Below are positions 2,975 through 54,673 of a stretch of DNA of 54,673 nucleotides, piece after piece (positions within the stretch are counted from its first letter, which is position 1; each line of letters begins with the position of its first letter). A program made the position numbers and the translations under genes. Under the pieces are notes generated by a model. It saw only the letters and a list, made by a program, of their open reading frames with translations. It searched no databases and was not told the DNA's origin. Source of the stretch: a virus (Duplodnaviria > Caudoviricetes); the IMG/VR virus record IMGVR_UViG_3300031939_000377, positions 1 to 54,673 of that record, one strand, 5' to 3'.

Positions 2975-3746
2975 TGAGCCTCCAACTCATTGGACGATCG
3001 AGCGCAATGACCCTCCGCGGAACTCGTGAAGTGACGCCGGAGGTTGGGCTAAAGGCCACGCCCATCATTCCGTGCGCAGTGCCTCCAGCCGTGAACGAGA
3101 TGGCTATCGTTCCGCCAGCGTTCGTCGCGGCGTTGTACTCTGCCAGAGTTCGAGTGACCCCGTTGGTCACCTGCGTAGCCGCCTGCGTGTATCCGGAGCC
3201 AGCGGAGAGCGTCGTGGATACGTCGCCATAGCCCCAAGGCAGCGCGTTCACTTGCGCTCCCGTTATGTTTCCTGACGTAGCGGTCGCGCTGCAGAATGGC
3301 GTTCCCGAGTTGGCGTTGGTCGGGGCAGGAATCGCAGGAGATCCCAGGTTCCACTGGTAGCTGTCCGCGAACAAGCTCCCAGTGGACCCGGCGCTCCACG
3401 TCGCCGTTACCGTCGTAGCTCCGGACGCGACGGACACCGTGGAGTAGATCTCGGCTATGGCGCGCCCCATCGAGCAGTTCGCGATCAACGTCCAGGGCGT
3501 TGACCCGGTGTTCGCCGAGTCCTTGATCGTGCAGGTGTTCGACAGGGACGCCGCGTCGCACCCGGCTACCAGCAAGTTCCCCACGTGCCCGACCGTCAGA
3601 TTGCAGGTTCCAGTCGCAGCTGTTCCGGTTACGCCGGCAGAACAGCCGGTTCCATCGTGCGCCCACGAGGCGACGAACGCGCTGGCGGGCCAGCGAAGAG
3701 CTACGCCCGCGGCAAGGATTACTAAAAGCAGGATTAGTTTCCGCAC
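2967..3746 (-). CDS. Secreted Thr/Ser/Gly-rich beta protein
   Basis: Sec signal MRKLILLLVILAAGVALRWPASA; Cys pairs; coupled to neighbours. Confidence 0.7.
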   Translation of the reverse strand: MRKLILLLVILAAGVALRWPASAFVASWAHDGTGCSAGVTGTAATGTCNLTVGHVGNLLVAGCDAASLSNTCTIKDSANTGSTPWTLIANCSMGRAIAEIYSTVSVASGATTVTATWSAGSTGSLFADSYQWNLGSPAIPAPTNANSGTPFCSATATSGNITGAQVNALPWGYGDVSTTLSAGSGYTQAATQVTNGVTRTLAEYNAATNAGGTIAISFTAGGTAHGMMGVAFSPTSGVTSRVPRRVIALDRPMSWRLSE

Positions 3747-14800: not shown

Positions 14801-15809
14801 GAACCACTTCCATCCTGGTCGCGTTGCCGTCACCCAAGACGTTGGCGATGATCGGGTTCTTGATCCACTGCGCGCCGTCAACCAGGGGATATGGCCGGTT
14901 GTAGATGGCTTCATTACGCGCGCGAAAGACGGTGACCTTGCCCTTCACGTAATTGGTGGCCTGGACTTCGCGATTGTCCGGCGACCATTGGATCCCTTTG
15001 AATCGCCCGGTGGCCCTATCGCTCGAATCCTGCGAATACATGCCGCGGGCCACGCAATCGGCCTTGGTGTAATTGCAGGCGATGTAGATGCCGGCGCCGT
15101 CCGCAATCACGTTGCGCTGCGGGTCGGTCGCGTTCGCGGTGGTGGTGTTGCCCCGTCGACAATCTCCGCCAATTTCGGGATCCGTGCCGGCCTGGTCCGG
15201 GTTGTAGCCGCAGCCCCACTGCCAGGAGGACATGTCTGTCGCGCCGGCCAACCGCTCAAAGGCGTTTCGCGGGAACAGATTGACGCATCTCTGCTGCACG
15301 CGCTCAATGGGCAGGTCGACCAGCGCGAGATTGTGGGAAGTGGTGGCCCGGATCGAAAGGAACTGGGCGCCGGCGGGCGCTTTTCCGGGAGCATCGCAAA
15401 TCCCGGTGAATTTGAATGGCGCCGGCGAATCGTCGCTGAAGACGTAATCGCCGGTTGCCGGATCGATGTCTCGCAGCACCAGGGCGAGCTGCAGGATGGC
15501 TCCCTTGAAGCCCTTGCCGTTCGCCAGTTCGTAATTGAGCAGGAGGAACTGATCGGCATTGTAGAGATTCAGCGTGACGTCGCTGATCCGGTCGATGCCC
15601 TGCTCGCTGCGCGCCTGGACCTGTTGGATATCCTGCGCATCGATGCGCGCAAGATAATCGTTGCCGGCGTACTGGTTTCCACCTTCTCCGGCGTTCAGCG
15701 GATGGGTGCTGGCGCGAAGATAAGAGCCGTCGGCGAACTGGAAAGTTGCCAGCAGCATTGGCGCATAGTTGCCCTCTTTGTTGTCAATGAGGGGGCCGGG
15801 CAGCGCCAT
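11874..15809 (-). CDS. Tail tip / baseplate hub protein (central fibre, lambda J or GTA-like)
   Basis: 1311 aa, position after distal tail gene, Cys cluster near N-terminus (CNYTKADC). Confidence 0.7.
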   Translation of the reverse strand: MALPGPLIDNKEGNYAPMLLATFQFADGSYLRASTHPLNAGEGGNQYAGNDYLARIDAQDIQQVQARSEQGIDRISDVTLNLYNADQFLLLNYELANGKGFKGAILQLALVLRDIDPATGDYVFSDDSPAPFKFTGICDAPGKAPAGAQFLSIRATTSHNLALVDLPIERVQQRCVNLFPRNAFERLAGATDMSSWQWGCGYNPDQAGTDPEIGGDCRRGNTTTANATDPQRNVIADGAGIYIACNYTKADCVARGMYSQDSSDRATGRFKGIQWSPDNREVQATNYVKGKVTVFRARNEAIYNRPYPLVDGAQWIKNPIIANVLGDGNATRMEVVLCSGDIGHDGVDVVVVNGILIPPNAQVGTDPLERWNFLDSLTDATASVSTHTGGRNGIATADLGYNSLGDPYGGLATIEIVVYSDLAASNSIPSVQVRLKQGTFLVTYTGSGPYTRVLARTTNYAWTLYDKLIWANYSFQELDTASFVAEAAYCDAPVSYIDLNGNAQTHARFICQQAIEEQGKANEIIQAMLRGCNGQLIPNSDTGLLQFFIRKTLADQQPAPVPGSNYDTPVLSVHADNTVADGVGDNGSAYVAYLIDDAVILQDGKGQPQMEGPYALANAQSPNSISFGFQDADNGFQDDSISVVDPDDVARAAGYQLGGAQIPAGYTVRGVSSFDQGIRTCNVILAENFRGNPWLDTRGTYFWQPTTTHRLAHLRVGHICLLRFQSQALAPSVPLQSPPGTGITGILVRVEAIKPASNYQRMTVTLRWHDDRWYTDIYGQRGTPGYSDPRQPLPTRPPLPWRPYAEQPIAGDSMYDPSEWNFGVSQVYGLAGDGSPLAVLPIIGNPTVNTLTTGPARVQPPLMNTEANTANTGGTIKGGQRILMAISVQDVNGKWSALSSFTSVTIPAGTDTNTAVTPTISWGTGTAAWVLFAGIGHNSLSAQASGTATPSTITITALNIATYGPPDALSAGLVIEVKEEIHGGPWGDSCFGTPTSNGDGTGFIHFIGHTVTDHQFQEIDSTHGYDLSVLALPYGNTGTVPIADYHVIDNVAGVYHVRPDPTVAGIQDGTVFKINYCPTVITDTTIGDPNTVNGYLPDGFGTAGNELVGGRVRLTRGTGKGQERNIVGNTNDTITIDQAWHTTPDNTTRYVIEYSAWQDQPTATISNSMMLATPPPQVATVNILNYAKQVILVRALTADQTGKTSLKRWSPYREIYIWGAQGTRIITASQTMIYTDSLIVADCTSNDIVYTMLPFSQLPNMVMTWDRADTSAHTFTVQVDPSTTDTFGSESGPISSFTVDPNQPRTYRING

Positions 15810-16971: not shown

Positions 16972-19900
16972 AAATGCCTCAAGGTCTCCTGCAGGCCTGT
17001 CCCCCGCCCGGTCTGGATTGCATGCTGCACAGCGTCCGCCACCAGGTGGGAATTCTCGTTGAAGGATCGTGAGTCAAGCGTTTGCACGTTTACCGTGATC
17101 GGAGTTCCGCCAGGCCCACCAAACGCGCTGTCGGTCCGGCCAGGGACTGTGATGTTGTGCCGGTAGTCGAAAAATCCCTGCTCGACGGTCGGGAATGGCG
17201 AAAGGTTCGAGCCCCGCGGCGCGCCGAAGCGGTCGAAGTCGGCGTACGTGCCGCCGGTGGTCATGCTGGCGTTGATCGCCACCGGTGCCATGTACTGGTT
17301 GTATTTCAGCTCGTTCTGGATCTCGTTTTCCCGCCGTTGTTTGGGATCTCCGAGAATCGAAGAAATGAGAGTAGTGGCCATGGCGGCCGCCATGATGAAG
17401 GGCTGCTGGGGACCTGGGATGAGAGACGCGGCGCCGAGAATTGAGCCGGTCCCCTGTAGCGCGCCTTGCGCTCCGCCGGCCTTAAAGCCTTCATAGGCTC
17501 CATATGCCGCTCCGGCTGCCGCCACGCCGTATCCAATGCCCTTGCCGACCGTCAATCCACCTTTGCCGGGAGCGCTGTAGCCCTGCGTAGAGAAGCCCGT
17601 ATTGGGTGTCGAGTTGTCACCGGGGATTGGTGAGCCCGTTTGATTCGGGCCGGTCTCGCCAAACGCCTGCTTCAACTCATCGGGGGTGAATTCATCGATA
17701 CCGCCGCCGGCGCCGGCGCCGGCGCCGGTCCACATGCCGGAGATCCTGGAGGCGGCTCCATTCCATCCGCCGCCGGCGCTTCCACCGCCGCCAGAGGGTG
17801 AGGTAGCAGCAGCTCGCAAGTCCGCCGCGGCCTGAATCAGATCGGTGCCGGCTTGGGTGAGCGTCATGCCGGCCGTCTTCAACGGATCCGGACCGAATGG
17901 CGTCCCCTCGAGGAGCTTGCCCATCGTGGTGCCGGCCTGGGCGTGCATGCCACCCATCGCCTTTTGAATAGTGGGCCATGCCAGCCCCGCGGCGTTACCG
18001 ACGATCGTGTCTTCGATCTTGTTGAGCTGGCCGATCAGGAATTTCTGAATGCCGGCGCCGCCTCCGGAGCGCGCCGCGTCGACGAATCCGACGGCGAGAG
18101 ATTGGAACTCCTGCTTTTGCCGGAGCGCTATTTCAAGCAGCGCGTTCTCCTGCGCCATCCTGGCATCGAAAATCTGCTGGTCCTTGTCGGCCAGGGCGAT
18201 TTTACGGGCGGACTCTTGCTCGCCTGTGGTTTTCAGCAGCGCCGCAATCTTCAGCCGCTGCGCGTATTCCTGGTTCACCAGCGAAATTCTGAGATTGTAG
18301 GTATCCGAAACCTCCTGCCCTTCGCTGCCGCCTGCCAGTTGGTTCCGGATTCCGATTTGGCTAAGCCGCCTTTGTCCGGTGTTGCGAAGATTCCGCAACG
18401 AATCCTCTTCCACCTTCAGGGCGCCTTCTCGAGCTTCGTTTGCGGCCTTGAGCACCGATTTCAGGAGAGCGTCGGCCAGCTTGTCGGCGGTTTTGTAAAC
18501 CTCGTCCCAGCCCCTGTCTTCGTCCTTGCCTGCGACGAGCTGCCCGCGGAAATCCATCTTGTCGAGCTTGGTCTGGGACGCTTGTCGTTCTTTCGCCGCA
18601 TCAGCGACGTAGGTGACGAAGGCCGCGCGTTGCTGGAGGTCGAAGTCCGCATTGATCCTGGCCGCGTTGGCCCCGGGCTTTCTCAACTCGTCTGCGCGGT
18701 CCGCGGCGATGTCGGTTCTGGAGCGGTCGTACCGCCTTTGGGCGGAATCCTCACCGCGATAGAAGGCGTCATCGAAGGCCTTCTCTGACCGCTTGCGAAG
18801 CTCGATTTCGCGCTCGATCGCGCCTTTCAGCTCCTGTGCCGCCTTGATTTGCTCTTTCGTTGCCGCGATTTGCTGGTCGATTTTCTCCAGGCCGGCGCGG
18901 GCTGTGACTTGTTTAGGACTGCCTGGGGCTGCGGATGTGAATCGTTGTTCGGCATCCTCGCGGTCGGATGTGAGGCGCTTCAGCTCGTTGTCAAGACGGG
19001 TTTTGACATCCTCGTGCGCAAGATTGTATTCGCGCAATTTCTGGGCGTTCGCGCTCCGGAGCAGCGATTCTGCGCTCGGGCCGGTCGGCGGCTTGGTCTC
19101 TTTCGCTACTCCTGCCGCATATGCGGCGTCGAAGTCCTCCCCCTGGTTGCGCTTCGCTATGAAATCAGACAGGCCACCCGCGCCCGGGACAATGCCTTCG
19201 ACGATGGCATTCCTCACCATCCGGCCGATGCTGTAAGCGTCGCTCGTATCTTTCAGATTGATATCGCCACCACCGGTGACGAAGCGAATGACGCCAATAG
19301 CTCCCTGCCCAAGTGAAAGTTTCAGGGCATCCCATTGCAATCCGAGGAGGACTAGCTGCTCCCGATATTTGGCCGCCTTCTGGATGCCTTGGGCATCCAT
19401 GATGACCCCTGTCGCGGACACGCGCGCTTCGAGCTGCTTGAACTGCGCGAAGAGAGGCTCCATCTCCAGGCCGCTTCGCCCAAAGAGGGTGATCGTCATG
19501 CGGTCCCGCTCCATGGCATTCCCGACCGCAGATAGCTTCTGGAATAATTCCGGAAGTAGCTCGCCCATGGGCTTGAACGCTGCTTCGGCACCCAGCCCCA
19601 GCTCCTCGAGGACCTTCTTTTGCTTCTTTCCCTCGTCGGAGTTTTCGCTCATCCCGCGGGAGAGGGTGCGCATCGCCGTCGTGAGCGTGCCTGCGTTGAC
19701 GCCGGCAACTTCCGACGCTCGAGTGTAGAGCTGCGTCTCGGTGGTGGTGAGGCCGGTGCGCGATGCCAGGTTGGCGGTTTCCTGGGCATACTTGGCGGTG
19801 TCGCTCGCGTTCTTGATCAGCCAGCCGCTGACAACCGCAAGCCCGAGGCCCACGCCGCCGGCCGCAATCCCCACCTTGCCGTAGCTGACAACGAACTTCT

Positions 19901-36509: not shown

Positions 36510-37418
36510 TTAACCGAGAATTGAGCGCCAGTCCATGCCCGCGGCCAGGTGCTTGCCCATGGCCACCAGGTTCGGGATCGCGGCGGCGTCGGACATGTCG
36601 ATCGACTGCGGCAGCCGCCAGTTGAAACGGGACAGAATCCCCGGCCAGTGCCGCCTTACGATCTGGGTCTGCTCATCGATGGGCGAATCCAGCAGCGTTC
36701 CGATCGTCCATCCGAGCGTGGCGAGGATCCCGGCCGGCGGGTTCACGGCGCCGTCGGCCGGGTAGTAGCCCGTGCCGAGTGAAATCACCCGCGTAGTCTC
36801 CGGCGTGAAATCGTCATAGCAAAACGCTTCCACGCACGCGCGATAAACCGGGTTGCCGGTAGTCCCGACGCCGCCGTCGAAGCACCAACCGACCAGCTGG
36901 CCGGCCAGCGGCGAAACGTACCACGGCGACAGGTATGTCGGCGCCGCGGCGCTTGCCACTGCGCAATCGATCAGCGAGAGGCCGCCGGTCACCTGGGAGT
37001 TTCGGTCGCAGTCGCGCACGAAGTACCAGGGGTGGCCGTTGACGCCCATGGCGGTCAGCAGGATCCGGATCGGCAGATTGTTCAGCCGTGCATCCGCAGC
37101 CTGGCCAAAGCGTTTTGCCAGCACATCGTGCACGCGCTGGGATTGATAGGCGTATCCCTGCGCCAGCCGGACCGGCAGAGCCAGGGCGGGGCCCGGCGTG
37201 AAGATCTTGGCCGCGTCCTCGAGGTAAATCTGCAGGATGGTCTCAGCGGGAAGGCCCACGGCGACCGCGGCCGCGATCAGCGCGCCCGTCGACGTGCCGG
37301 CCACGAACTGGAAGACATCGCGCGTCGGCTTGCCGAGTTGCCGCTCCAGCTCCACCAGGAAACAGGCAGTGAGCGCGCCACGCACGCCGCCGCCGTCGAT
37401 ACTCAATAGGTTTCGCAT
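36510..37418 (-). CDS. Patatin-like phospholipase
   Basis: DGGGVRG, GTSTG, ASAAAPTY, DGG. Confidence 0.9.
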   Translation of the reverse strand: MRNLLSIDGGGVRGALTACFLVELERQLGKPTRDVFQFVAGTSTGALIAAAVAVGLPAETILQIYLEDAAKIFTPGPALALPVRLAQGYAYQSQRVHDVLAKRFGQAADARLNNLPIRILLTAMGVNGHPWYFVRDCDRNSQVTGGLSLIDCAVASAAAPTYLSPWYVSPLAGQLVGWCFDGGVGTTGNPVYRACVEAFCYDDFTPETTRVISLGTGYYPADGAVNPPAGILATLGWTIGTLLDSPIDEQTQIVRRHWPGILSRFNWRLPQSIDMSDAAAIPNLVAMGKHLAAGMDWRSILG

Positions 37419-38266: not shown

Positions 38267-38881
38267 TTAGGCATCCAGATGGGGGGTGTCGTAGGGAGGC
38301 TTTCCGTACAGCTTGATTCCGTCGACCACGGTTTGGGTGGGGAGGCCCATTTGCTTGGCGATTTTCCGGAAGCTCATCCCGCTCTTTCTCAGCCGGACCG
38401 CCTCGTCCCGGCGGAAAATCCGCGGCTTCCGCCCGCAGTGAACCCCGCGCTTTTTGGCTTCCGCCACTCCGGCCGTTACCCGCTCGACGATCAGGTTCCG
38501 CTCGAACTCGGCGAAGACTCCCAGGATCTGCATGAACATCCGGCCGCCGGCGTTCTGCAGGTGCGTATCGATTCCCTGGGTCACGCACACGAAACGGATG
38601 CTGAGGGAATCGAAAAGTGTCACGTGTTCGACCAGTTTGGAGATGGATCGCGCGAAACGATCCAGCTTCCAGACCAGGACCGCCTCAAACTTCCGAAGCT
38701 TCGCATCTGCGATCAGGCGATCAAATGCCGGCCGCTTTTTGACGCTGGAAGCCTTTTCCACGTATTCCACGATTTCCCACCCGGCGCGCGCGGCATACGA
38801 GCGCAACTCGGTGAGCTGCATTTCATAGTCCTGGATCTTCGTCGAAACCCGGGCGTAGATGGCCGCTTTGAGTTTGGTCAT
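38267..38881 (-). CDS. Small serine recombinase (resolvase/invertase family)
   Basis: IYARVST, KLDRFARS, FAEFER..I.ER..AG, GR hinge, C-terminal HTH. Confidence 0.92.
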   Translation of the reverse strand: MTKLKAAIYARVSTKIQDYEMQLTELRSYAARAGWEIVEYVEKASSVKKRPAFDRLIADAKLRKFEAVLVWKLDRFARSISKLVEHVTLFDSLSIRFVCVTQGIDTHLQNAGGRMFMQILGVFAEFERNLIVERVTAGVAEAKKRGVHCGRKPRIFRRDEAVRLRKSGMSFRKIAKQMGLPTQTVVDGIKLYGKPPYDTPHLDA

Positions 38882-44127: not shown

Positions 44128-44977
44128 TCAATTTCCTTCTCCTTGGTCCCTTCCCCTTCGGTACGGCACGCCGGACAACAGGCTGATGTGCCGCACAAAG
44201 GACTCCGGTAGAAGATAGCCTTCTCCGCAGAAAAACTCGGAATCGTTACGGTTACAAGAAACCAATCCTGCCTGAAGGCGGTGCGTGCTGCCCTCGGGTG
44301 TATGACTGCAACGAAGATATATACGCAAAAGCCATTCCAGATCAGTGGAACAAATGCGTGCTGATCCGACGTTTATCCTGAATCGACGTTCTCGCAAGTC
44401 GCATGGACAGAGAGGACCGCGGGCGGCCCGGAGAGCGGCCTGATCAGTATCAAGAAATGCCATCATTCGTTCGTGATTGTGAAGCCAGATGTAGAAGCGA
44501 ACGGCTTCCGGATGGACTGGCATATCGAAGCCCCATTCACCATATCCTGGCTCTTCCCATCGGCCTTTACGGTTCCAATCCCAGTGGCCGTCGTCGAGCC
44601 TCAGTCGCCACGCAGGCTCTTTCCGCGCGGCTTCCTGCATGGTGGGCCTGGGGGCAGAAATCGCACTCGTCTTCAAGGGCTTGAGCGAAGCTAGCCGCTT
44701 CGCAACTCGGGCCGACATCTCAATCGCTTTCGCTTTAAGCAGAGATATTCCCGGCTCTGGAAGCAACAATGTCCGCTTCGCCGCATTGCAGCGGCGACAG
44801 GCCAACGTATAGTTTTCGAGGCTATCGGCCCCGCCTTTTGATCTCGGGTGAATGTGCTCGACTTGCAGAAAGCTGGCCTCGTGCTCCAAGCCCGCAATAC
44901 TGACAGCGGCGGGAATACAAATCGATCAGAATGGCCCGAACTTTAGCGGGTAAGACGGGCTGCGCCTCAGATATCAT
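44128..44977 (-). pseudogene. HNH endonuclease with +1 frameshift after the first CxxC
   Basis: ATG 44977 frame gives RCQYCG; next frame gives VEHIHPRSKGG...NY..AC..CN..K; one extra base at 44890-44893. Confidence 0.75.
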
Positions 44978-45132
44978 TTCGCCGCTTTTTTCTTCGCAGT
45001 CTTCCGGCGGCCGCCCCAGCGCGCTTCGTTCATCATCCGCGCGTGTTCCCTTCGCTCTTTCAGGGATGTTTTCGCCCAGCGCTTTTGAGCGAGTGCAGAT
45101 GCGGCCTCATCTCCGCCTGGTTTCTTCGACAT
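44974..45132 (-). CDS. 52-aa basic protein, paralog of 50160..50342
   Basis: MSKKPGGDEAASALAQKRWAKTSLKERREHARMMNEARWGGRRKTAKKKAAK. Confidence 0.7.
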   Translation of the reverse strand: MSKKPGGDEAASALAQKRWAKTSLKERREHARMMNEARWGGRRKTAKKKAAK

Positions 45133-45192
45133 CGCCCAACAGTTTATCCTTGCGCAAATATCCTAATGCAGACGGTAGAGATGGTATTCTCT

Positions 45193-45224
45193 AAAAAAAG
45201 AAAAGGGCCGACGTAATCGGCCCC
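45193..45224 (-). terminator. Intrinsic terminator (leftward)
   Basis: GGGCCGA-TTACG-TCGGCCC followed by TTTTCTTTTTTT. Confidence 0.8.
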
Positions 45225-45308: not shown

Positions 45309-46463
45309 ATGAACGCATTCGTGTTGTCCAGCGACGCTGCCATCCAATTCGGGCCGAAACGGCCCTGGTGGACGGAAGCAATGGAACGTATACTATCTGA
45401 GTTTGCGCCCGGCCGGATCGACAAAGCAGGACAGATCCTCGTCAGATCTGATGTCAGCGGAGCCGAAATGAATGCCGCCCAAAATCTCATGAACAATTGG
45501 CGGTCGGCGCATGGACATCCACTCGAAGTTGCAGTCAGGTCGTTGCGCAAGGCAGCTAGCGAAGTGAGCGACACCGTCATTATCGGAGAACGGCTGAAGC
45601 GCTTGCCGTCAATCACGGCGAAGTTGTCAAAGCAGCCAAACATGAAGCTCTCGCAGATGCAGGATATCGGCGGGTGCAGGGCGATCCTTCGAAACATGGA
45701 TGAACTCCAGTCTTTGCTGAAGCCCTCGCGCGATGTGGAGAGCGGACTCTTCGCTGATATCAAGAAGTACGATTACATTGCTCAACCCAAAGCCAGCGGT
45801 TATCGTAGCGTCCACTTTGTTTGGCGGTACCGATCCGATAGTCCCGCCAATAAAACCTATGACGGCATGAGGATTGAAATACAGGTTCGGTCCGCGCTGC
45901 AGCATGCGTGGGCGACGGCCGTAGAAATGGCATCGACGTATCGAAGCGAGGACTTGAAGGGCGGCGCCGGCGATGAAAAGTGGATCAGGTTTTTCGCGCT
46001 CATGGGGAGCGCCATCGCACTCAGCGAACGAAGTCCTATTGTGCCCGGAACGCCCGTAAGAAAAACGCAACTGATACGGGAATTGAAGTCTTTATCCGAA
46101 GACCTGAAGGTTTGCAACCTGATGCGGCGATGGTCCGATATAACCGCGATTCGCGATGATCACAGCTCTGAGCCGGCGCGATTGTTCCTTGTGACATTAA
46201 GGGAATCAGACTACCGGTGGTTCCTCGATGTCCGGTCTTTTCCTGGAACCAAGAAAATGAATGTGCAGGAAGAATACCTGAACGCAGAAAAGGAGAGCGT
46301 CGGGCGAAATAACGTGCAGGTTGCGCTGCTGTCGGTCGAGTCGATCGATATCTTACGATCGGCATATCCGAACTACTATGGGGACACTTCCGCGTTCATT
46401 ACAGCCTTAGAGCAGATCCTTCACGGAAGAACGGAATCTCCGGTCTTCGGGTATCGGAGCTGA
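45309..46463 (+). CDS. RelA/SpoT-domain small alarmone synthetase family, fused CapRel-like toxin-antitoxin (start may be 45381)
   Basis: RLKR..SI..KL, MQDIGGCR, DYI..PK.SGYRSVH, EIQVR..LQHAWATAVE; C-terminal LR.AYPNY.D. Confidence 0.85.
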   Translation: MNAFVLSSDAAIQFGPKRPWWTEAMERILSEFAPGRIDKAGQILVRSDVSGAEMNAAQNLMNNWRSAHGHPLEVAVRSLRKAASEVSDTVIIGERLKRLPSITAKLSKQPNMKLSQMQDIGGCRAILRNMDELQSLLKPSRDVESGLFADIKKYDYIAQPKASGYRSVHFVWRYRSDSPANKTYDGMRIEIQVRSALQHAWATAVEMASTYRSEDLKGGAGDEKWIRFFALMGSAIALSERSPIVPGTPVRKTQLIRELKSLSEDLKVCNLMRRWSDITAIRDDHSSEPARLFLVTLRESDYRWFLDVRSFPGTKKMNVQEEYLNAEKESVGRNNVQVALLSVESIDILRSAYPNYYGDTSAFITALEQILHGRTESPVFGYRS

Positions 46464-46503: not shown

Positions 46504-46878
46504 CTACTCGTCGGCGAAAAGAAATTTCTCAAGTATTCTGCGCGACGCCTGCCAGAATTCCAGTTCGATGTTTCCGGCCCTCAACCTGCATTCACCGGCT
46601 TCCGTGGCCGAGGGAATCAAGGCCAGGGCGTTCTCGCGGCCCGTCGACCATTCCACGGATATCTGGTGGCTTTGGCGACGCAGCGTAACTTTCGATATAC
46701 TGGCCCGCCGGGAGTTCTTAGTGATGACGCCGATACTGGCATCCGCTGAGAATTCGATGGTCGGGGCCGTGTTGTCGAGGGGCGCCCTCCAAATTTCGAG
46801 GTCGGTCCGGATGCGCTCGCACAGGGTATTCCAGGCATGTTCGATGGAGCATTTCCGCCTGGCTGTGATCCAGTCCAT
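46504..46878 (-). CDS. Cassette-family hypothetical protein (paralog of 48450..48863)
   Basis: DW..AR..CSI...D; GECRL....E...WQ..R..LE..F. Confidence 0.7.
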   Translation of the reverse strand: MDWITARRKCSIEHAWNTLCERIRTDLEIWRAPLDNTAPTIEFSADASIGVITKNSRRASISKVTLRRQSHQISVEWSTGRENALALIPSATEAGECRLRAGNIELEFWQASRRILEKFLFADE

Positions 46879-47672: not shown

Positions 47673-48125
47673 TCATGATTTTTTCACATCAAAAAGGAAA
47701 GCATCGAGGATGGTTTCCGCGGCTTGTTCCGTCGCTATCGGCTCCCCTTTCTCATCCAGGAAGCTCGGCTGGTTTTGATCGTTGACGCCGATGCCGATTG
47801 TCCCGACCACACCACCACCGTCCGAGCGACTGAACTTCACAACGGTTTTTTCGCGGTCGAACGTCACTTCCAGCTTTCTGAGCAGTGTCGTCATAACATT
47901 CGCGCTTCTATCGCGACTGCCCACTTTGGCCCAGATCCTCTCCGGTTGCGGGCCGCTCCATTCTACAATCTCGCCTGGAGTGGCGGCTTGATATGCTTTC
48001 AGGTTGCGCCCAATCGCCGCGCAAAGATTCTGCCAGAGCACATCCATGCCTTCGTCGATAATTCGCCGCCGCTCTTCTGCGGTGTAGCGCTCCTGTAGGC
48101 GTCTCTTCAGCCACTCTTCGCCCAT
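47673..48125 (-). CDS. Cassette-family hypothetical protein (paralog of 49206..49616)
   Basis: W..L..A..R....Y; P.F...G....EQ.A..IL. Confidence 0.7.
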   Translation of the reverse strand: MGEEWLKRRLQERYTAEERRRIIDEGMDVLWQNLCAAIGRNLKAYQAATPGEIVEWSGPQPERIWAKVGSRDRSANVMTTLLRKLEVTFDREKTVVKFSRSDGGGVVGTIGIGVNDQNQPSFLDEKGEPIATEQAAETILDAFLFDVKKS

Positions 48126-48398
48126 TTATTCTCCCTTCAGCGGCTTCCCGGCGCCTTCTGTGGTTTTCAACTGCCGGATCCGTACTCTCCACTTTGCGGA
48201 GGCGTAGAGGTGCCGGTAGGTGTCCAGATCCTGTCGAAGTGAAATGTCGTAAGTCTTGTGGCAACTCGGACACTGAGAGGGCACTGCGGTTTTCGTCTCG
48301 CTGGCGTCGATCGCAACTTCCGTCCGGCAGTCCGGGCAGGAGATCACTAACCAGCGGAGTTCCGTGAAGTCCAGCAGCAAGTTTTCTTCAATACTCAT
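48126..48398 (-). CDS. Zn-ribbon protein
   Basis: CPDC...CPSC; start supplied by repeat. Confidence 0.65.
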   Translation of the reverse strand: MSIEENLLLDFTELRWLVISCPDCRTEVAIDASETKTAVPSQCPSCHKTYDISLRQDLDTYRHLYASAKWRVRIRQLKTTEGAGKPLKGE

Positions 48399-48443
48399 TC
48401 ACACAACCCTCAGCGCGTCCTTGTCTGCCGCCCTGTACTCGAT
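48394..48443. repeat. 50-bp cassette-junction direct repeat, copy C
   Basis: 49/50 identical to 49612..49661. Confidence 0.95.
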
Positions 48444-48449
48444 CGCTGC

Positions 48450-48863
48450 TCACCGAGGCCCGCCTGCGGTGTCTGATGGAGGCGAATCGAAGAATAGGTC
48501 CTCCAGGGCCTTCCGGCGAAACTGCCACTGCCCGACTTCCTTGCCGTTCACTTTAAGCCGGCACTCCCCGTCGTCATTCAGGGTTAGCGTAGCTTCGACC
48601 TTTGCTTTGGTGCGGGAATGAGCCGCTGTAATTCGCCCGCCGCTGCGAACGAATTCCACTGAATCCGTATTTCCCCGCGGCTGATCTCTTACAACGGCGA
48701 AATGATCGCTATCTCCACCATCGGCGACTTTGAACTGGCCCTCTCTTCCGGGCAGAGCGTTGGCGATTTCAACATCCGCCTTCACGCCCATCTGCAGTTC
48801 TTTGAAGACAACCGCGATTGAGCAGGCGGCGCGTGCTTTTACCCAATCAAAGTCTTCGCTCAT
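48450..48863 (-). CDS. Cassette-family hypothetical protein
   Basis: Bounded by repeats; paralog of 46504..46878. Confidence 0.7.
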   Translation of the reverse strand: MSEDFDWVKARAACSIAVVFKELQMGVKADVEIANALPGREGQFKVADGGDSDHFAVVRDQPRGNTDSVEFVRSGGRITAAHSRTKAKVEATLTLNDDGECRLKVNGKEVGQWQFRRKALEDLFFDSPPSDTAGGPR

Positions 48864-48918
48864 TTATACAACCTTCAGCGCGTCCTTGGGGTTCTCTCTC
48901 ATCTGCCTACTCGATCGC
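48859..48918. repeat. Degenerate cassette-junction repeat, copy B
   Basis: First 30 bp match copy A at 28/30, then TCTGCC and TACTCGATCGC with internal indels. Confidence 0.85.
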
Positions 48919-49209
48919 GATGCCCATAGACTGTAGGTTTTTCAAACTGGCCAGGAGCCTGGCTTCCGTTTCTTCGAATTCCACGAGCGCCTGGCGGAGC
49001 TGCTGGGCGTCGATCCGCTTCATCGGATTATTGGAGATCAAGTGCAGCGCCCTCTTTATCGAAGCGGGATCTTGCAACGATTGCCCGATTTCCTGGAGCA
49101 TCTTGCCGAGTTGCTGGAATTCATTTCGAAGGAGGGAGAGCGACTTCTTGGATTCGGAGTACGCCTCCAGCGCTTCCCCCAGGATGCGCTGTCTGTCAGA
49201 GTCGCTCAT
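48907..49209 (-). CDS. Coiled-coil hypothetical protein
   Basis: ATGA coupling; stop lies inside repeat B. Confidence 0.65.
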   Translation of the reverse strand: MSDSDRQRILGEALEAYSESKKSLSLLRNEFQQLGKMLQEIGQSLQDPASIKRALHLISNNPMKRIDAQQLRQALVEFEETEARLLASLKNLQSMGIAIE

Positions 49210-49616
49210 GGAGTATGCCCTATTTTCGAAAGATTGGGCTGCAAGATCTCGCGCGCGACCTGCTCCGGGGTGAACCGCTTTCCGCCGCGTTCGAATACCG
49301 GGAATCCGCTTTCATCCGGCAGAATTTTGAATTCCATGCTCTTGCGCGTTTGCGTAACAGCGGAAGTCAGCAGCAGTTTTTCGAAGTCGATCGAAACGTG
49401 GATGTCCCGGCGGCCGGCTACGCGATCGGTGTTTTCCTGGAGCATGATCCAGAATCCATTATCGCCGCGGTCTTTCGTCTCGGAGGCGAATAATCCGAAG
49501 TGCGTTTTGTAGTCGGCAATGTCGCGAGCGAGGGCTTCCTTCAGCGCCTCCCATACTTCGGTGAGCTTCGCTTGGAACAGAGCCTGGCGGGCTGCTTCGT
49601 CTTCAATCCAGCTCAT
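49206..49616 (-). CDS. Cassette-family hypothetical protein
   Basis: Start supplied by repeat A; paralog of 47673..48125. Confidence 0.7.
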   Translation of the reverse strand: MSWIEDEAARQALFQAKLTEVWEALKEALARDIADYKTHFGLFASETKDRGDNGFWIMLQENTDRVAGRRDIHVSIDFEKLLLTSAVTQTRKSMEFKILPDESGFPVFERGGKRFTPEQVAREILQPNLSKIGHTP

Positions 49617-49661
49617 TCACACAACCTTCAGCGCGTCCTTGTCTGCCGCCCTGTACTCGAT
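49612..49661. repeat. 50-bp repeat, copy A (3' end of 49617..50159 plus next start)
   Basis: Encodes IEYRAADKDALKVV* then ATG AG. Confidence 0.95.
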
Positions 49662-50159
49662 GCTTACATAGCCGTTGCTATATCGACTCTCAGATCGGCG
49701 AAGCGTTATCGACGTCGAAGGGAACGTCCACAATGCATTGGTTCTGATACTCCCGCCCTCGGCCGAACGGTCCTCATTTTTCGGTTGGCCGTACTTTTCG
49801 ATCAGCAATTTTCGAAACGAATCAAACGCATTTTCTCTCGATGAAATGTCATGACTGACGCCCGTGCTGATTGTCACCCCGCCGATTACGTTCGAGCCCT
49901 TCTTGCTCTCAATGGAAACCCTGCAATGTACGTCCCCAATGAGAAACTCTTTGATGACAAGCTTTTCAATGAACGCAAAATTAACCCCTGGAATCTGGGT
50001 CGAATCTGTCGCCTGATCGCCGAGGGCCGCCTTCGCTTCCGCTACTGTCATGCCCCATTCGATTTTCCCCCAGCCCTTCACGTCGGGCTTGATGGGCGTG
50101 TAGTCTTGGCACGGCGCAACAGCCGCTAACATTAAGAGCCCAAGGGCTGCAGTTTTCAT
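49617..50159 (-). CDS. Secreted/periplasmic protein (possible superinfection exclusion)
   Basis: Signal MKTAALGLLMLAAVAPCQ; WGMT..E and L..KYG.P pattern; second gene of leftward operon. Confidence 0.6.
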   Translation of the reverse strand: MKTAALGLLMLAAVAPCQDYTPIKPDVKGWGKIEWGMTVAEAKAALGDQATDSTQIPGVNFAFIEKLVIKEFLIGDVHCRVSIESKKGSNVIGGVTISTGVSHDISSRENAFDSFRKLLIEKYGQPKNEDRSAEGGSIRTNALWTFPSTSITLRRSESRYSNGYVSIEYRAADKDALKVV

Positions 50160-50342
50160 CTACGTTGCCTTCTTCTTCTTCGCGGGCTTGCGACTCGACG
50201 CGGGCCGCTTCGCGACGTGCCCAGCCCAACGAGCTTCGGCCATTTTGCGGGCATGTTCCGCTCGATCTTTTTCGGGCGTCTTGTCCCAGCGTTTCTTCAC
50301 CAGCGCAGCGGCAATCGCGTCGCCGTCTTCTTTCCTGGACAT
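50160..50342 (-). CDS. 60-aa basic protein at the repressor position
   Basis: MSRKEDGDAIAAALVKKRWDKTPEKDRAEHARKMAEARWAG...KKKKAT; TATACT 9 nt upstream of ATG. Confidence 0.75.
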   Translation of the reverse strand: MSRKEDGDAIAAALVKKRWDKTPEKDRAEHARKMAEARWAGHVAKRPASSRKPAKKKKAT

Positions 50343-50408
50343 TTCCTCACCAGTATAGTCCTTACGAAAGCATCCTAATGAACCCCACATTTTTCGCAGT
50401 TTTTCTTG

Positions 50409-50437
50409 TTGACATGCTTATGTAAGAATGGCATAAT
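50409..50437 (+). promoter_or_regulatory. Sigma70 early promoter with operator-like dyad in spacer
   Basis: TTGACA-17 bp-CATAAT with TGn; 50414-50426 is the inverse of 50361-50373 at 11/13. Confidence 0.8.
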
Positions 50438-50483: not shown

Positions 50484-50789
50484 ATGAAACGCTACAGCAG
50501 ATTAGATCGGAACGAAGACGGATCGCCGGACATTCCGGAATTCATGAGCAGCAACGAGTGCGGGAACTGCGGGGAGAAAGCGGCCCGCCTCACGCACGTG
50601 CCCGAATTCAACTACATGGGCTGCGACGAGTGCGTTGAGGAAGCGATGCGCGTCATCGCCGCGGAAGTCGCCAAGCCCGCCCTGGACGAGGTCCGGCGCG
50701 AGAGGCTCAGCTTCCTGCTCGAAACGGGCTGCACTCCCGAAGAGGCCGCGGCGTACGCCGAATTCGTTAAGTTGCCGGAGGTGGCGTGA
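50484..50789 (+). CDS. Zn-finger protein, paralog 1
   Basis: CGNC...VPEFNYMGCDEC; ends VKLPEVA. Confidence 0.7.
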   Translation: MKRYSRLDRNEDGSPDIPEFMSSNECGNCGEKAARLTHVPEFNYMGCDECVEEAMRVIAAEVAKPALDEVRRERLSFLLETGCTPEEAAAYAEFVKLPEVA

Positions 50790-51106
50790 TGCCTGCCAGC
50801 AAACTAGCGCTTAAGTGCGAGAAGTGCGGACGCAGTGCGGACCGCGTCACACTCGTTCCCGAGTTTAATTTCATGGGCTGCGACGATTGCCATTCGGAAG
50901 CGCTTCGCGCTATCGCCGCGGAAGCCGCTAACCCCGCCGTGGACGAAGTCCGGCGCGAACGGCTCAACTTCCTCCTCAAAACGGCACTCACTCCCGAAGA
51001 GATTTGGGCATTCGCCGAAGCTGTCAAGACCGTCGTTGAGGTGGGGGGGGCGGCGTCCGGTGAGGCTGTCAAGGCCGCCCTCGTCAAGTTGCCGGAGGTG
51101 GCGTGA
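50786..51106 (+). CDS. Zn-finger protein, paralog 2
   Basis: CEKC...VPEFNFMGCDDC; ends VKLPEVA. Confidence 0.7.
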   Translation: MMPASKLALKCEKCGRSADRVTLVPEFNFMGCDDCHSEALRAIAAEAANPAVDEVRRERLNFLLKTALTPEEIWAFAEAVKTVVEVGGAASGEAVKAALVKLPEVA

Positions 51107-51849
51107 TGCCCAGCGAATTCGTCACCTTCGAAACCAACATCCCGCAGGTCGTTGCGCTCGCCTACGACTTCGGAAAGAAGACTGAAACCCGGTTCGGCGA
51201 CAAGATGTTTTACACGCTGGTGGATGGCCGGACGCTCTCCGTCCAACTCCCGACCGCCGATCTGATTACGAGCCTTGGCATCCGCCGCAACATGCCGTTT
51301 TCGATTTGCAAACGCGAAAAGAAGAACGGCGCCAAGAAAACCACCATCATGGACGTCTGGCTGCCAGGGCAGGATCAACTTCCGCCGGTACCGCCGCCGT
51401 CTCCCGCGTCGGTCGCCACCCGCATCCCCGACACCGACCTGGAGAAGCAGCTCCGCGCCTCGCTCGCCGCCGAAATCGAGCGCAAAAAAGCCGAAGCGAG
51501 TGTTGCCGCACCCGCCCCGGCTATGGCCGTACAGCAGTTAGCACAGCCTCTTACGCAAAACAATGGTAGCAGCAACGGCCATTCGAACGGCAACGGCAAT
51601 GGCAACGGCCACGCCAACGGGAATGGCGCGAATGCCAAGCCGTACGCCGCCGCGGGCATCCCGGCCCCGCCGGTGAAGATCCCGGCCGACATCGCCTTCC
51701 GCGAAGTGCTCGCTTTCGTCACCGACGGGCTGAAGTCCGCCGGCGAGCAGTGGACCGACCAGGCCAAGCAGGACATGGTCTCGACCATCATGATTCAGTC
51801 GATGCGCGACGGCGCAATCGGCATCTGGCAGCGCGGCGGTGCGAAATGA
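51103..51849 (+). CDS. Hypothetical recombination-module protein with Pro-rich and Asn-Gly linker
   Basis: Coupled to nuclease; beta N-domain, NG repeats, helical C-domain. Confidence 0.6.
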   Translation: MMPSEFVTFETNIPQVVALAYDFGKKTETRFGDKMFYTLVDGRTLSVQLPTADLITSLGIRRNMPFSICKREKKNGAKKTTIMDVWLPGQDQLPPVPPPSPASVATRIPDTDLEKQLRASLAAEIERKKAEASVAAPAPAMAVQQLAQPLTQNNGSSNGHSNGNGNGNGHANGNGANAKPYAAAGIPAPPVKIPADIAFREVLAFVTDGLKSAGEQWTDQAKQDMVSTIMIQSMRDGAIGIWQRGGAK

Positions 51850-52670
51850 GCGCCGCCCGTTCCTTCGTGGTTATGGATGCGCCGGGAGACGTTTTGTCTC
51901 CCAGCGCCGCCACCACCTACACCAACTGCGGCGCCAAGTATTACTTCGGCCGCGTCCTGAAGCTTCCGGATCCGCCCACCGGCGCCCTGGTGATGGGCAA
52001 CGCCGTTCACGCGGCGATCGGCGAGAACTTCCGGCAGAAGATCGAAACCAAACGGGACCTGCCGACCGCCGGCGTCCAGGCCATTTATCTGGAGGCCTGG
52101 GAGCAGCTCGTCGCCGGCACCGCGCCGAACCGCAGCAGTCGCCCTTCGCTGCCGGCGGAATTCCGCGACGATGAGAACCCGAAGGAATTGCGCGACGAAG
52201 GCCTGGCCCTCACGCTGAAATACCTGGACGAAGCCTGCCCGTCGATCGAGCCGGCCGCGGTCGAGCTGCCCGTCGCCGGCCGGATCGCGGGCGTCATGGT
52301 CCGCGGATACATCGATCTCCTGGAAGTCAACGGCCGGGTGCGCGATCTGAAGACGGCCAAGCGCACCCCGACCGACGTTTCCGCGAATTACCGTTTCCAG
52401 GTTTCGACCTACACCCAACTCACCCCATACGCGAGCGGCGACGCCTGCGTCGACACCCTGGTCAAACTCAAGACGCCAAAGCTCGTTCACCTGGAATTCA
52501 AGGCCAATGAGGCGGACAAGGCGGAAACGCAGGCTATGTATCCGCTGGTGCAGCAGAGCATCCGCGCCGGCGTGTTCCTCCCCAATAGACAGAACTACAT
52601 GTGCAGCCGCAAGTACTGTGGCCACTGGCGTCAGTGCGAGAAAAATTTCGGGGGCAAGGTATCCGAATGA
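51846..52670 (+). CDS. PD-(D/E)XK (RecB/Cas4-like) exonuclease with four-Cys cluster
   Basis: LSPS.....C, GNAVH, GYIDL..DLKT, Q...Y, C-terminal CSRKYC...C. Confidence 0.85.
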   Translation: MSAARSFVVMDAPGDVLSPSAATTYTNCGAKYYFGRVLKLPDPPTGALVMGNAVHAAIGENFRQKIETKRDLPTAGVQAIYLEAWEQLVAGTAPNRSSRPSLPAEFRDDENPKELRDEGLALTLKYLDEACPSIEPAAVELPVAGRIAGVMVRGYIDLLEVNGRVRDLKTAKRTPTDVSANYRFQVSTYTQLTPYASGDACVDTLVKLKTPKLVHLEFKANEADKAETQAMYPLVQQSIRAGVFLPNRQNYMCSRKYCGHWRQCEKNFGGKVSE

Positions 52671-53725: not shown

Positions 53726-54673
53726 TCACAACCCGAGAGAGACGCTGGCGTTATTCCGCCAGATGTCAGCACGGCGGAAGTAGCGCCTCACGATCTCCGG
53801 AGTCTGCGCGGTGTAGGCGGAGATTCTGAGCGCGCTCACGTTGGCTTCGCCCATGGCGGTGATGGCGCCGGCGCGCAGCGAATGCGCTCCCGATTGGCGC
53901 GGATCGATGCCGATGCCGGCGAGACACTTTTTCACGATTCTGCAAATGCACTCTCCGTCCAGCCGTTCGCCCCGGCGAAATTTGGTCACGCGGGGGAACA
54001 GGGGACCGGGATTGGTGCCGCGCACGCGCAGCCAGGCCTTCAGGACGCGCACCGGGTCGGTGTTCGGGTAACGGCCGCGGGCAATTCCGATGAAGCGGCC
54101 GCGGCCTTCCTGATCCTGTTTTTCTCTTTCGACGTGAATCACCAATCCCTGCCGGCAGAATTCGACGTCGGAGAGGTTGAGCAGCGCGAGGTTCGAACGG
54201 CGCAAGGTACTGGCGAAACCAATCACGAGCAACGCGCGGTTGCGCATCGCCGCGATCGAGCCGATGCGCAGCAAACAGCCGGACATCTTCCGCAGCTCGC
54301 ACACCGTAATAGGGCGCATCTGCCGCGGCTTCTCGGCGCGCAGCCGTTGAGCGCCGCGCAGCAACGCCCGGACTTCGGTGACGTCGGGCGCCTCCAGGCC
54401 GTGCGAGCGGTGGGCATGCAGGACCGCGCATTGGCGCCGGCGGGCCGTGGTGATTTTCTTGCCGTGGCTCAGCAGGTCGGTGAGGTAAAGGGAAAGAGTC
54501 TCCGCGGTGGTTGGCAGCGCCGAACGGTGGTAGCGTTCGCACCAGGCCGCATACATGCGCATGTCGTACCCATAGCCGAGGACCGTGTTCTGTGCGACCA
54601 GGCCCTGTTTCAATCTTGCCTTTTCGATTTGCAGCCATTCGATAGCCGCGGCGTTAGGATGAGGGACAGCCAT
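53726..54673 (-). CDS. Cre-like tyrosine recombinase/integrase
   Basis: N-terminal SAM-like domain; RNRALL..GF...LRRS, K.DQEG.G, HSLRAG, RRY. Confidence 0.9.
   Translation of the reverse strand: MAVPHPNAAAIEWLQIEKARLKQGLVAQNTVLGYGYDMRMYAAWCERYHRSALPTTAETLSLYLTDLLSHGKKITTARRRQCAVLHAHRSHGLEAPDVTEVRALLRGAQRLRAEKPRQMRPITVCELRKMSGCLLRIGSIAAMRNRALLVIGFASTLRRSNLALLNLSDVEFCRQGLVIHVEREKQDQEGRGRFIGIARGRYPNTDPVRVLKAWLRVRGTNPGPLFPRVTKFRRGERLDGECICRIVKKCLAGIGIDPRQSGAHSLRAGAITAMGEANVSALRISAYTAQTPEIVRRYFRRADIWRNNASVSLGL

Follow-up and report, generated by a model that had tools for sequence, protein, structure and literature searches.

In mycobacteriophage Island3, the last 18 residues of gp68, the product of an inserted small ORFan, together with about 50 bp of DNA, are common with the upstream gp67, an arrangement that has been read as recombination between sequences of about 50 bp (Pope 2011, PMC3029335). 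General recombination enzymes are proposed there, in a scheme akin to the 'short conserved boundary sequences' model, and the sister phage Brujita is without the insert (PMC3029335). In T4-type phages, ORFans of hyperplastic regions are flanked by repeated expression signals of about 100 bp, termed PeSLs (Arbiol 2010, PMC2839356), and recombination between PeSLs deletes, inserts or swaps genes and can give mini-circles (PMC2839356). Likewise, the arrays of orphan cdiA-CT/cdiI and rhs-CT modules are described as resulting from incoming modules that integrate at a conserved gene end and displace the older 3' module downstream (Ruhe 2016, PMC4927057); the displaced modules keep a fragment of the upstream gene, and the arrays form a fossil record that can recombine back (PMC4927057). 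Here, we compare with these systems an array of small genes in a soil provirus of the Caudoviricetes, IMG/VR record IMGVR_UViG_3300031939_000377, the whole of which (54,673 bp; CheckV completeness 83) is the window analysed below. Copies of a short element, called S hereafter, punctuate this array. S consists of the 3' end of an apparently host-derived gene, g180 (its last 14 codons and stop), plus the ribosome-binding site and abutting start used by the next gene. We consider, with moderate confidence, that serial displacement, or unequal crossover, behind g180 left the copies of S as scars, through general or phage-promoted recombination on short homologies.

Copies of S and their source gene

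Two operons run outward from a divergent control region at approximately 50.35-50.48 kb. The leftward one, on the minus strand, holds g76, g180, g136, g100, g137, g90, g150, g181, a small membrane open reading frame (ORF; read by eye) and g124. It had been called a lysogenic operon in an earlier note on this DNA, a name that is not borne out, as no repressor-like gene was identified in it. Cassette junctions are 0-51 nt long, with stop and start codons that abut or overlap, and no promoter or terminator consensus was found on the minus strand between the cassettes or at the copies of S. The copies and the genes they separate are, in the order of transcription:

49617..50159, minus strand: g180, 180 residues, with a signal peptide and a conserved Cys; source of the tail
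49600..49664, minus strand: copy C (S_C), the living copy; it spans the last 14 codons of g180 and TGA (49617-49661), contains a GAAGG ribosome site and runs on through the abutting ATG into the first codons of g136
49206..49616, minus strand: g136, superfamily member with a native MSWIEDE start
48907..49209, minus strand: g100, an ORFan whose start overlaps the g136 stop (ATGA) and which ends inside stub B
48859..48918, minus strand: copy B (S_B), a presumably older stub with indels, whose right 30 nt supply the ribosome site and ATG of g137
48450..48863, minus strand: g137, of the g136 superfamily, paralogue of g124, between stubs B and A
48385..48447, minus strand: copy A (S_A), a g180-type 3' end reduced to an untranslated stub of 45 nt, which supplies the ribosome site of g90
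48126..48398, minus strand: g90, a Cys4 zinc-ribbon-like protein with a native MSIEEN start
48115..48142, minus strand: copy T, a tentative trace at the g90/g150 junction, reading CGCTGAAGG..ATAAATGGGCGAAGA
47673..48125, minus strand: g150, a distant member of the g136 superfamily
46504-46878, minus strand: g124, the paralogue of g137

The earlier note had reported that the last 14 codons and stop of 49617..50159, followed by ATGAG, recur at 48394-48443. Indeed, copy A at these positions and copy C at 49612-49661 are identical at 49 of 50 positions, and a search of the window with the 50-mer, at up to 3 mismatches, retrieves copies A and C only (no match in any of 100 shuffles). The pair has an identical stretch of 34 nt and is extended by gapped BLAST to 48385-48447 and 49600-49664 (92% of 66 columns). 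A 21-nt core, ACAACCYTCAGCGCGTCCTTG, occurs exactly three times, at 48403, 48868 and 49621, where 0 occurrences are expected. Copy A fills the 51-nt gap between the stop of g137 (48450-48452) and the ATG of g90 (48398), and reads TAGGPR*AAIEYRAADKDALRVV*, in frame with g137 yet behind its TGA stop. It is non-coding and its flanks are unrelated to those of copy C; its left 20 nt are nevertheless identical to copy C at all 20 positions.

The degenerate copy announced at 48859-48918 was also recovered. Copy B is 68% identical over the 50 nt of 48859-48908, and the 30 nt ending at ATGAG match copy C at 28 positions, whereas its middle is unalignable and 7 nt longer than in copy C, the indels lying in the left half. 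The left box of this copy, GCGATCGAGTAG, now encodes the last residues of g100 (AIE) and its stop; the first codons are ATC GAG TAG, against ATC GAG TAC in g180, and the remainder of B is non-coding. An 11-nt box, GCGATCGAGTA, stands at 48908-48918 and forms the left edge common to A and B, while C has AGCATCGAGTA at this place. This decay follows the pattern to be expected of a stub whose ribosome-site part would stay under selection. In addition, the conserved half of B departs from that of C at two positions, neither of which alters the product when read in the g180 frame (GTG to GTA and TGA to TAA); this is a weak hint that B may have diverged while still part of a working g180 allele.

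All copies have in common CGCTGArGG-N5-TrAATG, which places a GAAGG or GAGG ribosome site 8 nt upstream of an ATG abutting the stop. The genes that follow are different ones, as had been claimed, with starts MSWIED, MSEDFD and MSIEEN. Copies A and C both have GTGTGAATGAGy..ATTGAAGA, and B and the trace both have TAAATGrGCGAAGA; the likeness of A and C just past the ATG (ATGAGy..ATTGAAGA) would be fortuitous microhomology or a crossover edge.

To judge by its homologues, g180 is a host-type gene for a secreted protein or lipoprotein. We retrieved 21 homologues besides g180 itself, all at 55% identity or less and all with a signal peptide followed by a conserved Cys. The C-terminal consensus GYVxIxYxAxDKKxLxxL is present in 20 of these 21 (e.g. 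GYVNIEYRAVDKKAIDAL and GYVSIEYKAVDKKALETL), the remaining one being truncated. As the homologues end alike, the last 14 codons of g180, SIEYRAADKDALKVV, are its native C-terminus and, since the tail is native to g180, the other copies of S are dead 3' stubs of a g180-type gene. The family is bacterial, and chromosomal in Bryobacteraceae. The closest homologue (54% identity) lies on a contig, L005, among genes resembling housekeeping genes by eye, which we take to include those for an Obg-type GTPase and ribosomal protein L27. No other protein of the window was found within 6 kb of g180 homologues in 12 Acidobacteriota loci, and searches of the viral_contigs collection with the g180 sequence and with the g180 alignment gave no matches. 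Because homologues of g180, g137 and g136 occur in these bacteria, the host probably belongs to the Bryobacteraceae or to another Acidobacteriota lineage.

The genes placed behind the copies have native N-termini. Relatives of g136 start with MSWIEDE, MSWPEEE or MGWPEEE, and the three homologues of g90 with MSIEEN (two) or MSIQEI (one); the downstream genes are thus whole rather than chimeras, and chimeric starts of g136 and g90 are ruled out. The C-terminal 16 residues of g90 are missing from its homologues. Four of the genes, g136, g150, g137 and g124, belong to one divergent, uncharacterised superfamily of proteins of 124-150 residues, for which Pfam has no family. Profile comparison (hhalign) relates the g136 family to g150 (96.5% probability, E 9e-10) and to the g137 family (93.7%, E 1.9e-7), and g137 is 26% identical to g124 (E 4e-11); when the g137 family is compared with g150 directly, the probability is 26.6% only. 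Overall, the paralogues are 17-26% identical in protein. The superfamily was detected in 27 of the 401 Bryobacteraceae genomes searched, with two matches in 2 genomes only; as it is almost always present once per genome, four copies within 3 kb are unusual. Neither arrays nor junction repeats were seen at the 12 loci of the g136 superfamily that we examined. The superfamily is common in Acidobacteriota, where it sometimes adjoins an integrase (as in L066), and the ESM Atlas puts g136 among unnamed Acidobacteriota clusters.

Searches of Pfam, PHROGs and PADLOC gave no family for g180, g136, g137, g150, g181 and g124, and no toxin, immunity or defence family for g136, g100, g137, g90 and g150. 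The zinc-ribbon likeness of g90 comes from sub-threshold matches only. As for g100, it has no homologue but itself in a set of 5.8 billion proteins. A native microhomology as the origin of its end was set aside, there being no homologue to judge by, and no further likeness to g180 upstream of the 11-mer was found by eye in the 3' part of g100.

Relatives of the locus and other gene-end repeats

The nearest relatives of the phage backbone are two IMG/VR contigs of 66 and 54 kb (L077 and L078, respectively), in which the exonuclease (56-58% identity), p248 (41-46%) and g90 (73-74%) occupy the same relative positions; L077 has in addition the integrase, an excisionase-like gene and p101. The neighbours of g90 are other genes there: two small membrane proteins before it and a 113-residue ORF after it in L077, an 80-residue basic zinc-ribbon protein before it and a 185-residue secreted protein after it in L078. 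In a third contig, L004, with an exonuclease at 41% identity, a g137 homologue stands behind a different secreted protein and the other cassettes are missing. Finally, 45 metagenome loci were found through their exonuclease, 32 of them with a p248 match at E <=1e-4; none of the 45, many of which stop short of the region, has a match at this threshold to g180, g136, g100, g137, g90, g150, g181 or g124. Relatives of the backbone thus carry different genes at this locus, which identifies the leftward operon as hypervariable in this phage group. Against its own proposal, the earlier note had set a fixed gene order in all relatives, with the repeats explained by one old duplication. This does not hold, since gene content differs in L077, L078, L004 and the 45 loci, and the 49/50 identity of A and C rules out one old duplication.

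S itself was not found elsewhere. There were 0 matches to the exact sequence in viral_contigs and 0 to a codon-degenerate (third-position) pattern in metagenome_contigs. With the 3.9-kb operon DNA as query, the 401 Bryobacteraceae genomes yielded 14 matches, all short and weak and none of them over a copy of S. S is not present upstream of the g90 homologues of L077 and L078, nor is an S-like junction upstream of the g137-family homologues of L074, L075, L076, L066, L004 and L017, and an alignment of g136 (three closer sequences) had no matches in viral_contigs. As far as these searches extend, S appears private to this genome. The suggestion of a site common to the phage group therefore fails in the two contig collections, in the 401 genomes and in L077 and L078. 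In its accessory region, L077 has dispersed repeats of its own (25-105 nt, 82-100% identical; 11944-12378, 15441-15521, 17308-17404 and 18069-18171), which may be small mobile or boundary elements.

Repeats of comparable structure were sought by self-BLAST of the window with 25 loci, and of 14 further loci, and those of L017, L019, L025, L027 and L036 were inspected. The repeats of the last four lie inside ORFs or in non-coding-looking DNA, and only L017 qualifies as a gene-end/start repeat. This viral contig is unrelated to the window except for a g137 homologue. Its positions 2572-2616 and 3012-3062 repeat each other (88% of 51 columns). Both correspond to the end of a 149-residue gene that looks DUF551-like by eye, of which they hold the last approximately 15 codons (DDLARLIAEP..GAEP) and the stop/start overlap, GTGA. 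The first copy ends a truncated stub that begins directly after the TAG of the g137 homologue, in frame, and the full gene comes next (2473-3080). A gene for an HNH endonuclease lies at 3185-3631, after the repeated gene end.

A second instance is found in the window itself, at the head of the rightward operon (p101, p106, p248 and a PD-(D/E)XK exonuclease). There, p101 and p106 (50484-51110, plus strand) are tandem paralogues with 65% protein identity, for which a single tblastn locus was obtained in L077. Their gene bodies are 76-81% identical in DNA, against 96.7% of 30 nt (89% of 37 nt) for the junction of end and start, where KLPEVA* overlaps GTGATG. MMP is the start of both p106 and p248.

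50757-50793 and 51074-51110, plus strand: the two copies of the p101/p106 junction, AAGTTGCCGGAGGTGGCGTGATGCC

The L017 stub and this junction together suggest that unequal recombination carrying a gene end and the next start recurs in these phages. Moreover, the upstream frame is in phase with the stub in all three non-trivial joins (g100/B, g137/A and L017; chance approx. 1/27), g137 stopping two codons before stub A and g100 at the TAC-to-TAG position inside stub B.

Origin of the copies

From this arrangement, we infer a recombination pathway, an order of events and a role for translational coupling. Given the g180 stubs before g137 and g90, each of these two genes (and perhaps g150) would once have been the immediate downstream neighbour of a g180-type gene. 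Such a history agrees with repeated entry at a single site, the earlier occupants being shifted downstream. This part of the earlier note's proposal, repeated insertion at one site, is thereby retained, in line with the different genes of the relatives; the dedicated mechanism that went with it is not. Recombination between related phage genomes would put new DNA behind g180, and the older occupant would shift downstream with a piece of the tail. Two joins would be required per event, namely a crossover within the shared g180 region or upstream of it and, at the far end, an illegitimate join or one on microhomology. With at least two copies of S in place, homologous recombination on these 50-66-bp copies could then add, delete or swap units. 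Recombinants would survive because S gives the displaced gene a ribosome site and a stop/start junction; in-frame joins would let ribosomes reach a stop that abuts the next ATG, and the coupling kept in this manner is the filter that we propose for survival.

The most recent event is recorded by the near-identity of A and C between unrelated flanks, and was probably the entry of a block g136-g100-B-g137. The older stub B would have been present in this block on entry, and this would account for the stronger decay of the proximal stub. The left edge common to A and B, GCGATCGAGTA, suggests a common truncated ancestor and one founding illegitimate join, followed by homologous exchange between copies of S.

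The agents of recombination may be the RecA of the host or enzymes of the phage, for which the rightward operon offers a candidate module:

51103..52670, plus strand: p248, with an N-terminal OB-like barrel, followed by the PD-(D/E)XK exonuclease

The barrel is predicted over the N-terminal 90 residues of p248, with a block confidence (pLDDT) of 71-89, against 57 for the whole model. Phage recombinases are described as recombining short, diverged sequences, and Gp2.5-like recombinases are mentioned in this context (De Paepe 2014, PMC3945230).

Several points weigh against this scenario. First, the proximal stub B is more decayed than A, so that displacement of one occupant at a time needs the extra assumption made above, and the common left edge of A and B could also mean a join that was not random. 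Second, the history of the array is read from one genome. No S-carrying relative was found, so that neither a single-copy 'empty' form nor an alternative order of cassettes was seen. Third, the order of the copies depends on one assembled contig, since unitigs of the Logan resource end inside every copy and none bridges A. Fourth, the trace that the earlier note had seen before 48125 is weak. It matches copy B at 24 of 28 positions and is the sole match at 22/28 or better in the window, both strands included. On the other hand, start-aligned 30-mers score 18-21/30 against the copies of S and 18/30 against the unrelated g76/g180 junction, so that its likeness is in part the purine-rich composition of a ribosome site with a stop/start. 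Finally, p248 is only weakly similar in structure to single-stranded-DNA-binding proteins (best Foldseek E 0.024), and searches of Pfam, PHROGs, NCBIfam and PDB sequence profiles related it to no known annealase.

Among the other explanations, the stacking of two divergent haplotypes in one step is unlikely but has several observations on its side. A phage with g180-S1-(g136,g100)-S2-g137 would have met one with g180-S1-g90-S2-g150, and unequal crossover would have joined the end of g137 to the second g180 tail. This accounts for the alternation of junction types (C and A alike, B and the trace alike), for the near-identity of A with C, as befits the newest join, and for the position of two g136-superfamily members, g137 and g150. 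However, the scheme leans on the weak fourth copy and on a kinship of g150 with the g137 family that the direct comparison given above hardly brings out. The genes after g90 in L077 and L078 are others, and no such parental haplotype was found.

S could also be a live exchange handle, a translational counterpart of the PeSLs, although we regard this as quite unlikely. In that case, the exonuclease and the OB-fold protein would recombine the copies with appreciable frequency, and circles of 465, 753 and 1218 bp would reinsert in co-infecting relatives. Each circle would hold one S and at least one gene, in-frame joining would be selected, and genes without promoters would circulate among phages of this group as units ready for translation, inserted behind a host-derived lipoprotein gene.

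It is improbable that S is maintained as a functional module, such as a portable translation-initiation and coupling region or a regulator site, homogenised by gene conversion. The ribosome site and the stop/start junction are indeed kept in all copies, B having decayed only outside them, and the p101/p106 junction is likewise better conserved than the gene bodies. Yet the left 20 nt of copy A, non-coding and identical to C, have no obvious function, which points to recency and not to selection. Furthermore, the RNA folds of S are no better than those of shuffles (z 0.17-0.71 and -1.0), so that no conserved RNA structure is apparent, a search of Rfam gave no family, and the other junctions of the same operon are without S.

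Very little probability remains for a scenario in which a paralogous gene was duplicated in tandem, junction included, and the gene bodies then diverged. The operon does hold four distant paralogues, and the lineage makes tandem duplicates, as p101 and p106 illustrate. Nevertheless, the ages do not fit, with paralogues at 17-26% identity in protein against 98% in DNA for A and C; the tail comes from g180, which is not one of the paralogues, and S_A precedes g90, which is unrelated to them.

An assembly artefact, with strain variants threaded serially through the 34-nt identical stretch, is most improbable too, even though the record is a metagenome assembly and Logan unitigs (k=31) break in every copy. 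Indeed, A and C differ by one base, the joins between the g137 end and stub A and between g100 and stub B are unique and must exist in reads, and the repeats are shorter than typical reads. The Logan unitigs of four soil runs, one of them possibly the source sample, are 100% identical to the array where they cover it, and no conflicting or rearranged joint was found at 47-50.4 kb in the Logan contigs of these runs, with partial cover of the array in some of them; these data bear neither for nor against rearranged forms of the array. Depth in the same runs is meaningless at 51561-51627 (plus strand), an Asn/Gly-rich low-complexity stretch of p248 with AACGGC-type repeats that draws many unrelated soil contigs (approx. 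118-166 in three runs and 37 in the fourth, against approx. 8 or less elsewhere).

A dedicated, integron-like cassette system, with S as the site of a phage recombinase, has next to no chance of being correct and is not supported: three to four co-oriented cassettes do follow one promoter with the same sequence before each, and the phage has two recombinases, but every feature of integrons that we looked for failed, as there are 0 inverted repeats or dyads in or around the three copies of S, single-stranded DNA folds of S on both strands are no better than those of shuffles (-2.7 to -7 kcal/mol; z -0.9 to +1.1), the integrase at 53726-54673 matches generic Xer-type models only (20-38 bits against cut-offs of 220-371), no IntI-type tyrosine recombinase was found beside the array, the serine recombinase is encoded 10 kb from the array, next to the lysozyme gene, and S is the coding end of a gene, not found in relatives or in the two collections scanned. 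The earlier note had itself remarked on the lack of attC dyads and of an IntI when it called the array integron-like, an analogy that the data do not support.

Serial displacement or unequal crossover behind g180 is thus retained as the best explanation, and it predicts specific deletion and circle products. Joins in phage mosaics seldom keep scars, whereas three, perhaps four, successive joins would be legible within a single operon here, and the repeated piece can be traced to a definite source, the C-terminus of a host-type secreted protein. The array would accordingly offer a concrete case, from uncultured phages of Acidobacteria, of accessory genes accreting behind a fixed gene. The suggested filter (ribosome site, stop/start coupling and in-frame join) would account for joins that fall at gene ends.

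The surrounding window and known systems

Pfam identifies on the window a P22-type coat protein, a T4-type large terminase, a Gp80-like fibre, a lysozyme and a patatin-like protein. Outside the array, the following features were noted:

50160..50345, minus strand: g76, which encodes a small basic protein and opens the leftward operon; paralogue of g52
50409-50437, plus strand: strong sigma-70-like rightward promoter consensus, inside the divergent control region
38267-38881, minus strand: small serine recombinase of 204 residues, resolvase/invertase-type (Pfam), beside the lysozyme gene and 10 kb from the array
36510-37418, minus strand: patatin-like phospholipase gene, beside the terminase region
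53726-54673: tyrosine integrase, at the right end
right end of the window: HTH_17/excisionase-like gene (Pfam)

The small basic paralogues g52 (44974-45132) and g76 are 54% identical, and each heads a leftward gene set. The DNA upstream of the two is alike (TCCTTrCGmAArnATCCTAATG, 82% of 22 nt; 44974-45168 and 50160-50380, minus strand), which suggests a duplicated operon head. Proteins similar to g76 head the leftward operon in L050, L060, L077 and L004 too. Alone on the plus strand between the two leftward operons stands a gene for a 384-residue RelA/SpoT-domain protein (45309-46463). The protein matches PDC-S33, a candidate defence model of PADLOC (E 1e-102), as well as phrog_4773 (E 3e-87), and its gene may be a defence gene of the toxSAS type; a bidirectional terminator-like hairpin lies at 45204-45224. 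In the second leftward gene set, the ORF at 44128-44889 (minus strand) has an N-terminal HNH nuclease motif and weak PtuB-like matches in PADLOC.

Compared with known systems, the array resembles an integron in its promoter-proximal, co-oriented and mostly promoterless cassettes, each adjoining a repeated sequence. It differs in that IntI, attC dyads, a folded bottom strand and a site conserved across relatives are all lacking. Morons of lambdoid phages carry their own promoter and terminator. The likeness to them lies in accessory genes, including one for a host-type secreted protein, added to a prophage; the genes of the window, however, abut without promoter or terminator consensus between them, and do not qualify as morons. 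Neither do they form a tandem array of paralogues, with 17-26% identity in protein against 98% in DNA for the repeat.

The resemblance to the CDI/Rhs loci is closer, as stubs A and B are fragments of the 3' end of g180, which is what defines a displaced module there. In CDI/Rhs arrays, the fragment is an internal, conserved one fused to a toxin tip, with an immunity gene after it, whereas here it consists of a C-terminus and stop, the genes are separate ORFs, and no toxin or immunity family was found. As with the PeSLs, each gene keeps its own expression signal. However, a PeSL is a promoter with a stem-loop terminator, present in many phages, whereas S is a gene end with a ribosome site and a start, has neither promoter nor hairpin, and is private to this genome within our searches.

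The closest published case is that of Island3, in which direct repeats of about 50 bp from the 3' end of the upstream gene flank the inserted gene, a structure that the array reproduces. Island3 has one pair of repeats and one inserted gene, and an insert-free relative in Brujita. In the present phage, no insert-free relative was found, and S occurs serially in three to four copies, of which two are untranslated and whose source gene is host-derived. The array thus calls for no mechanism beyond those proposed for mycobacteriophages, T4-type phages and CDI/Rhs loci.

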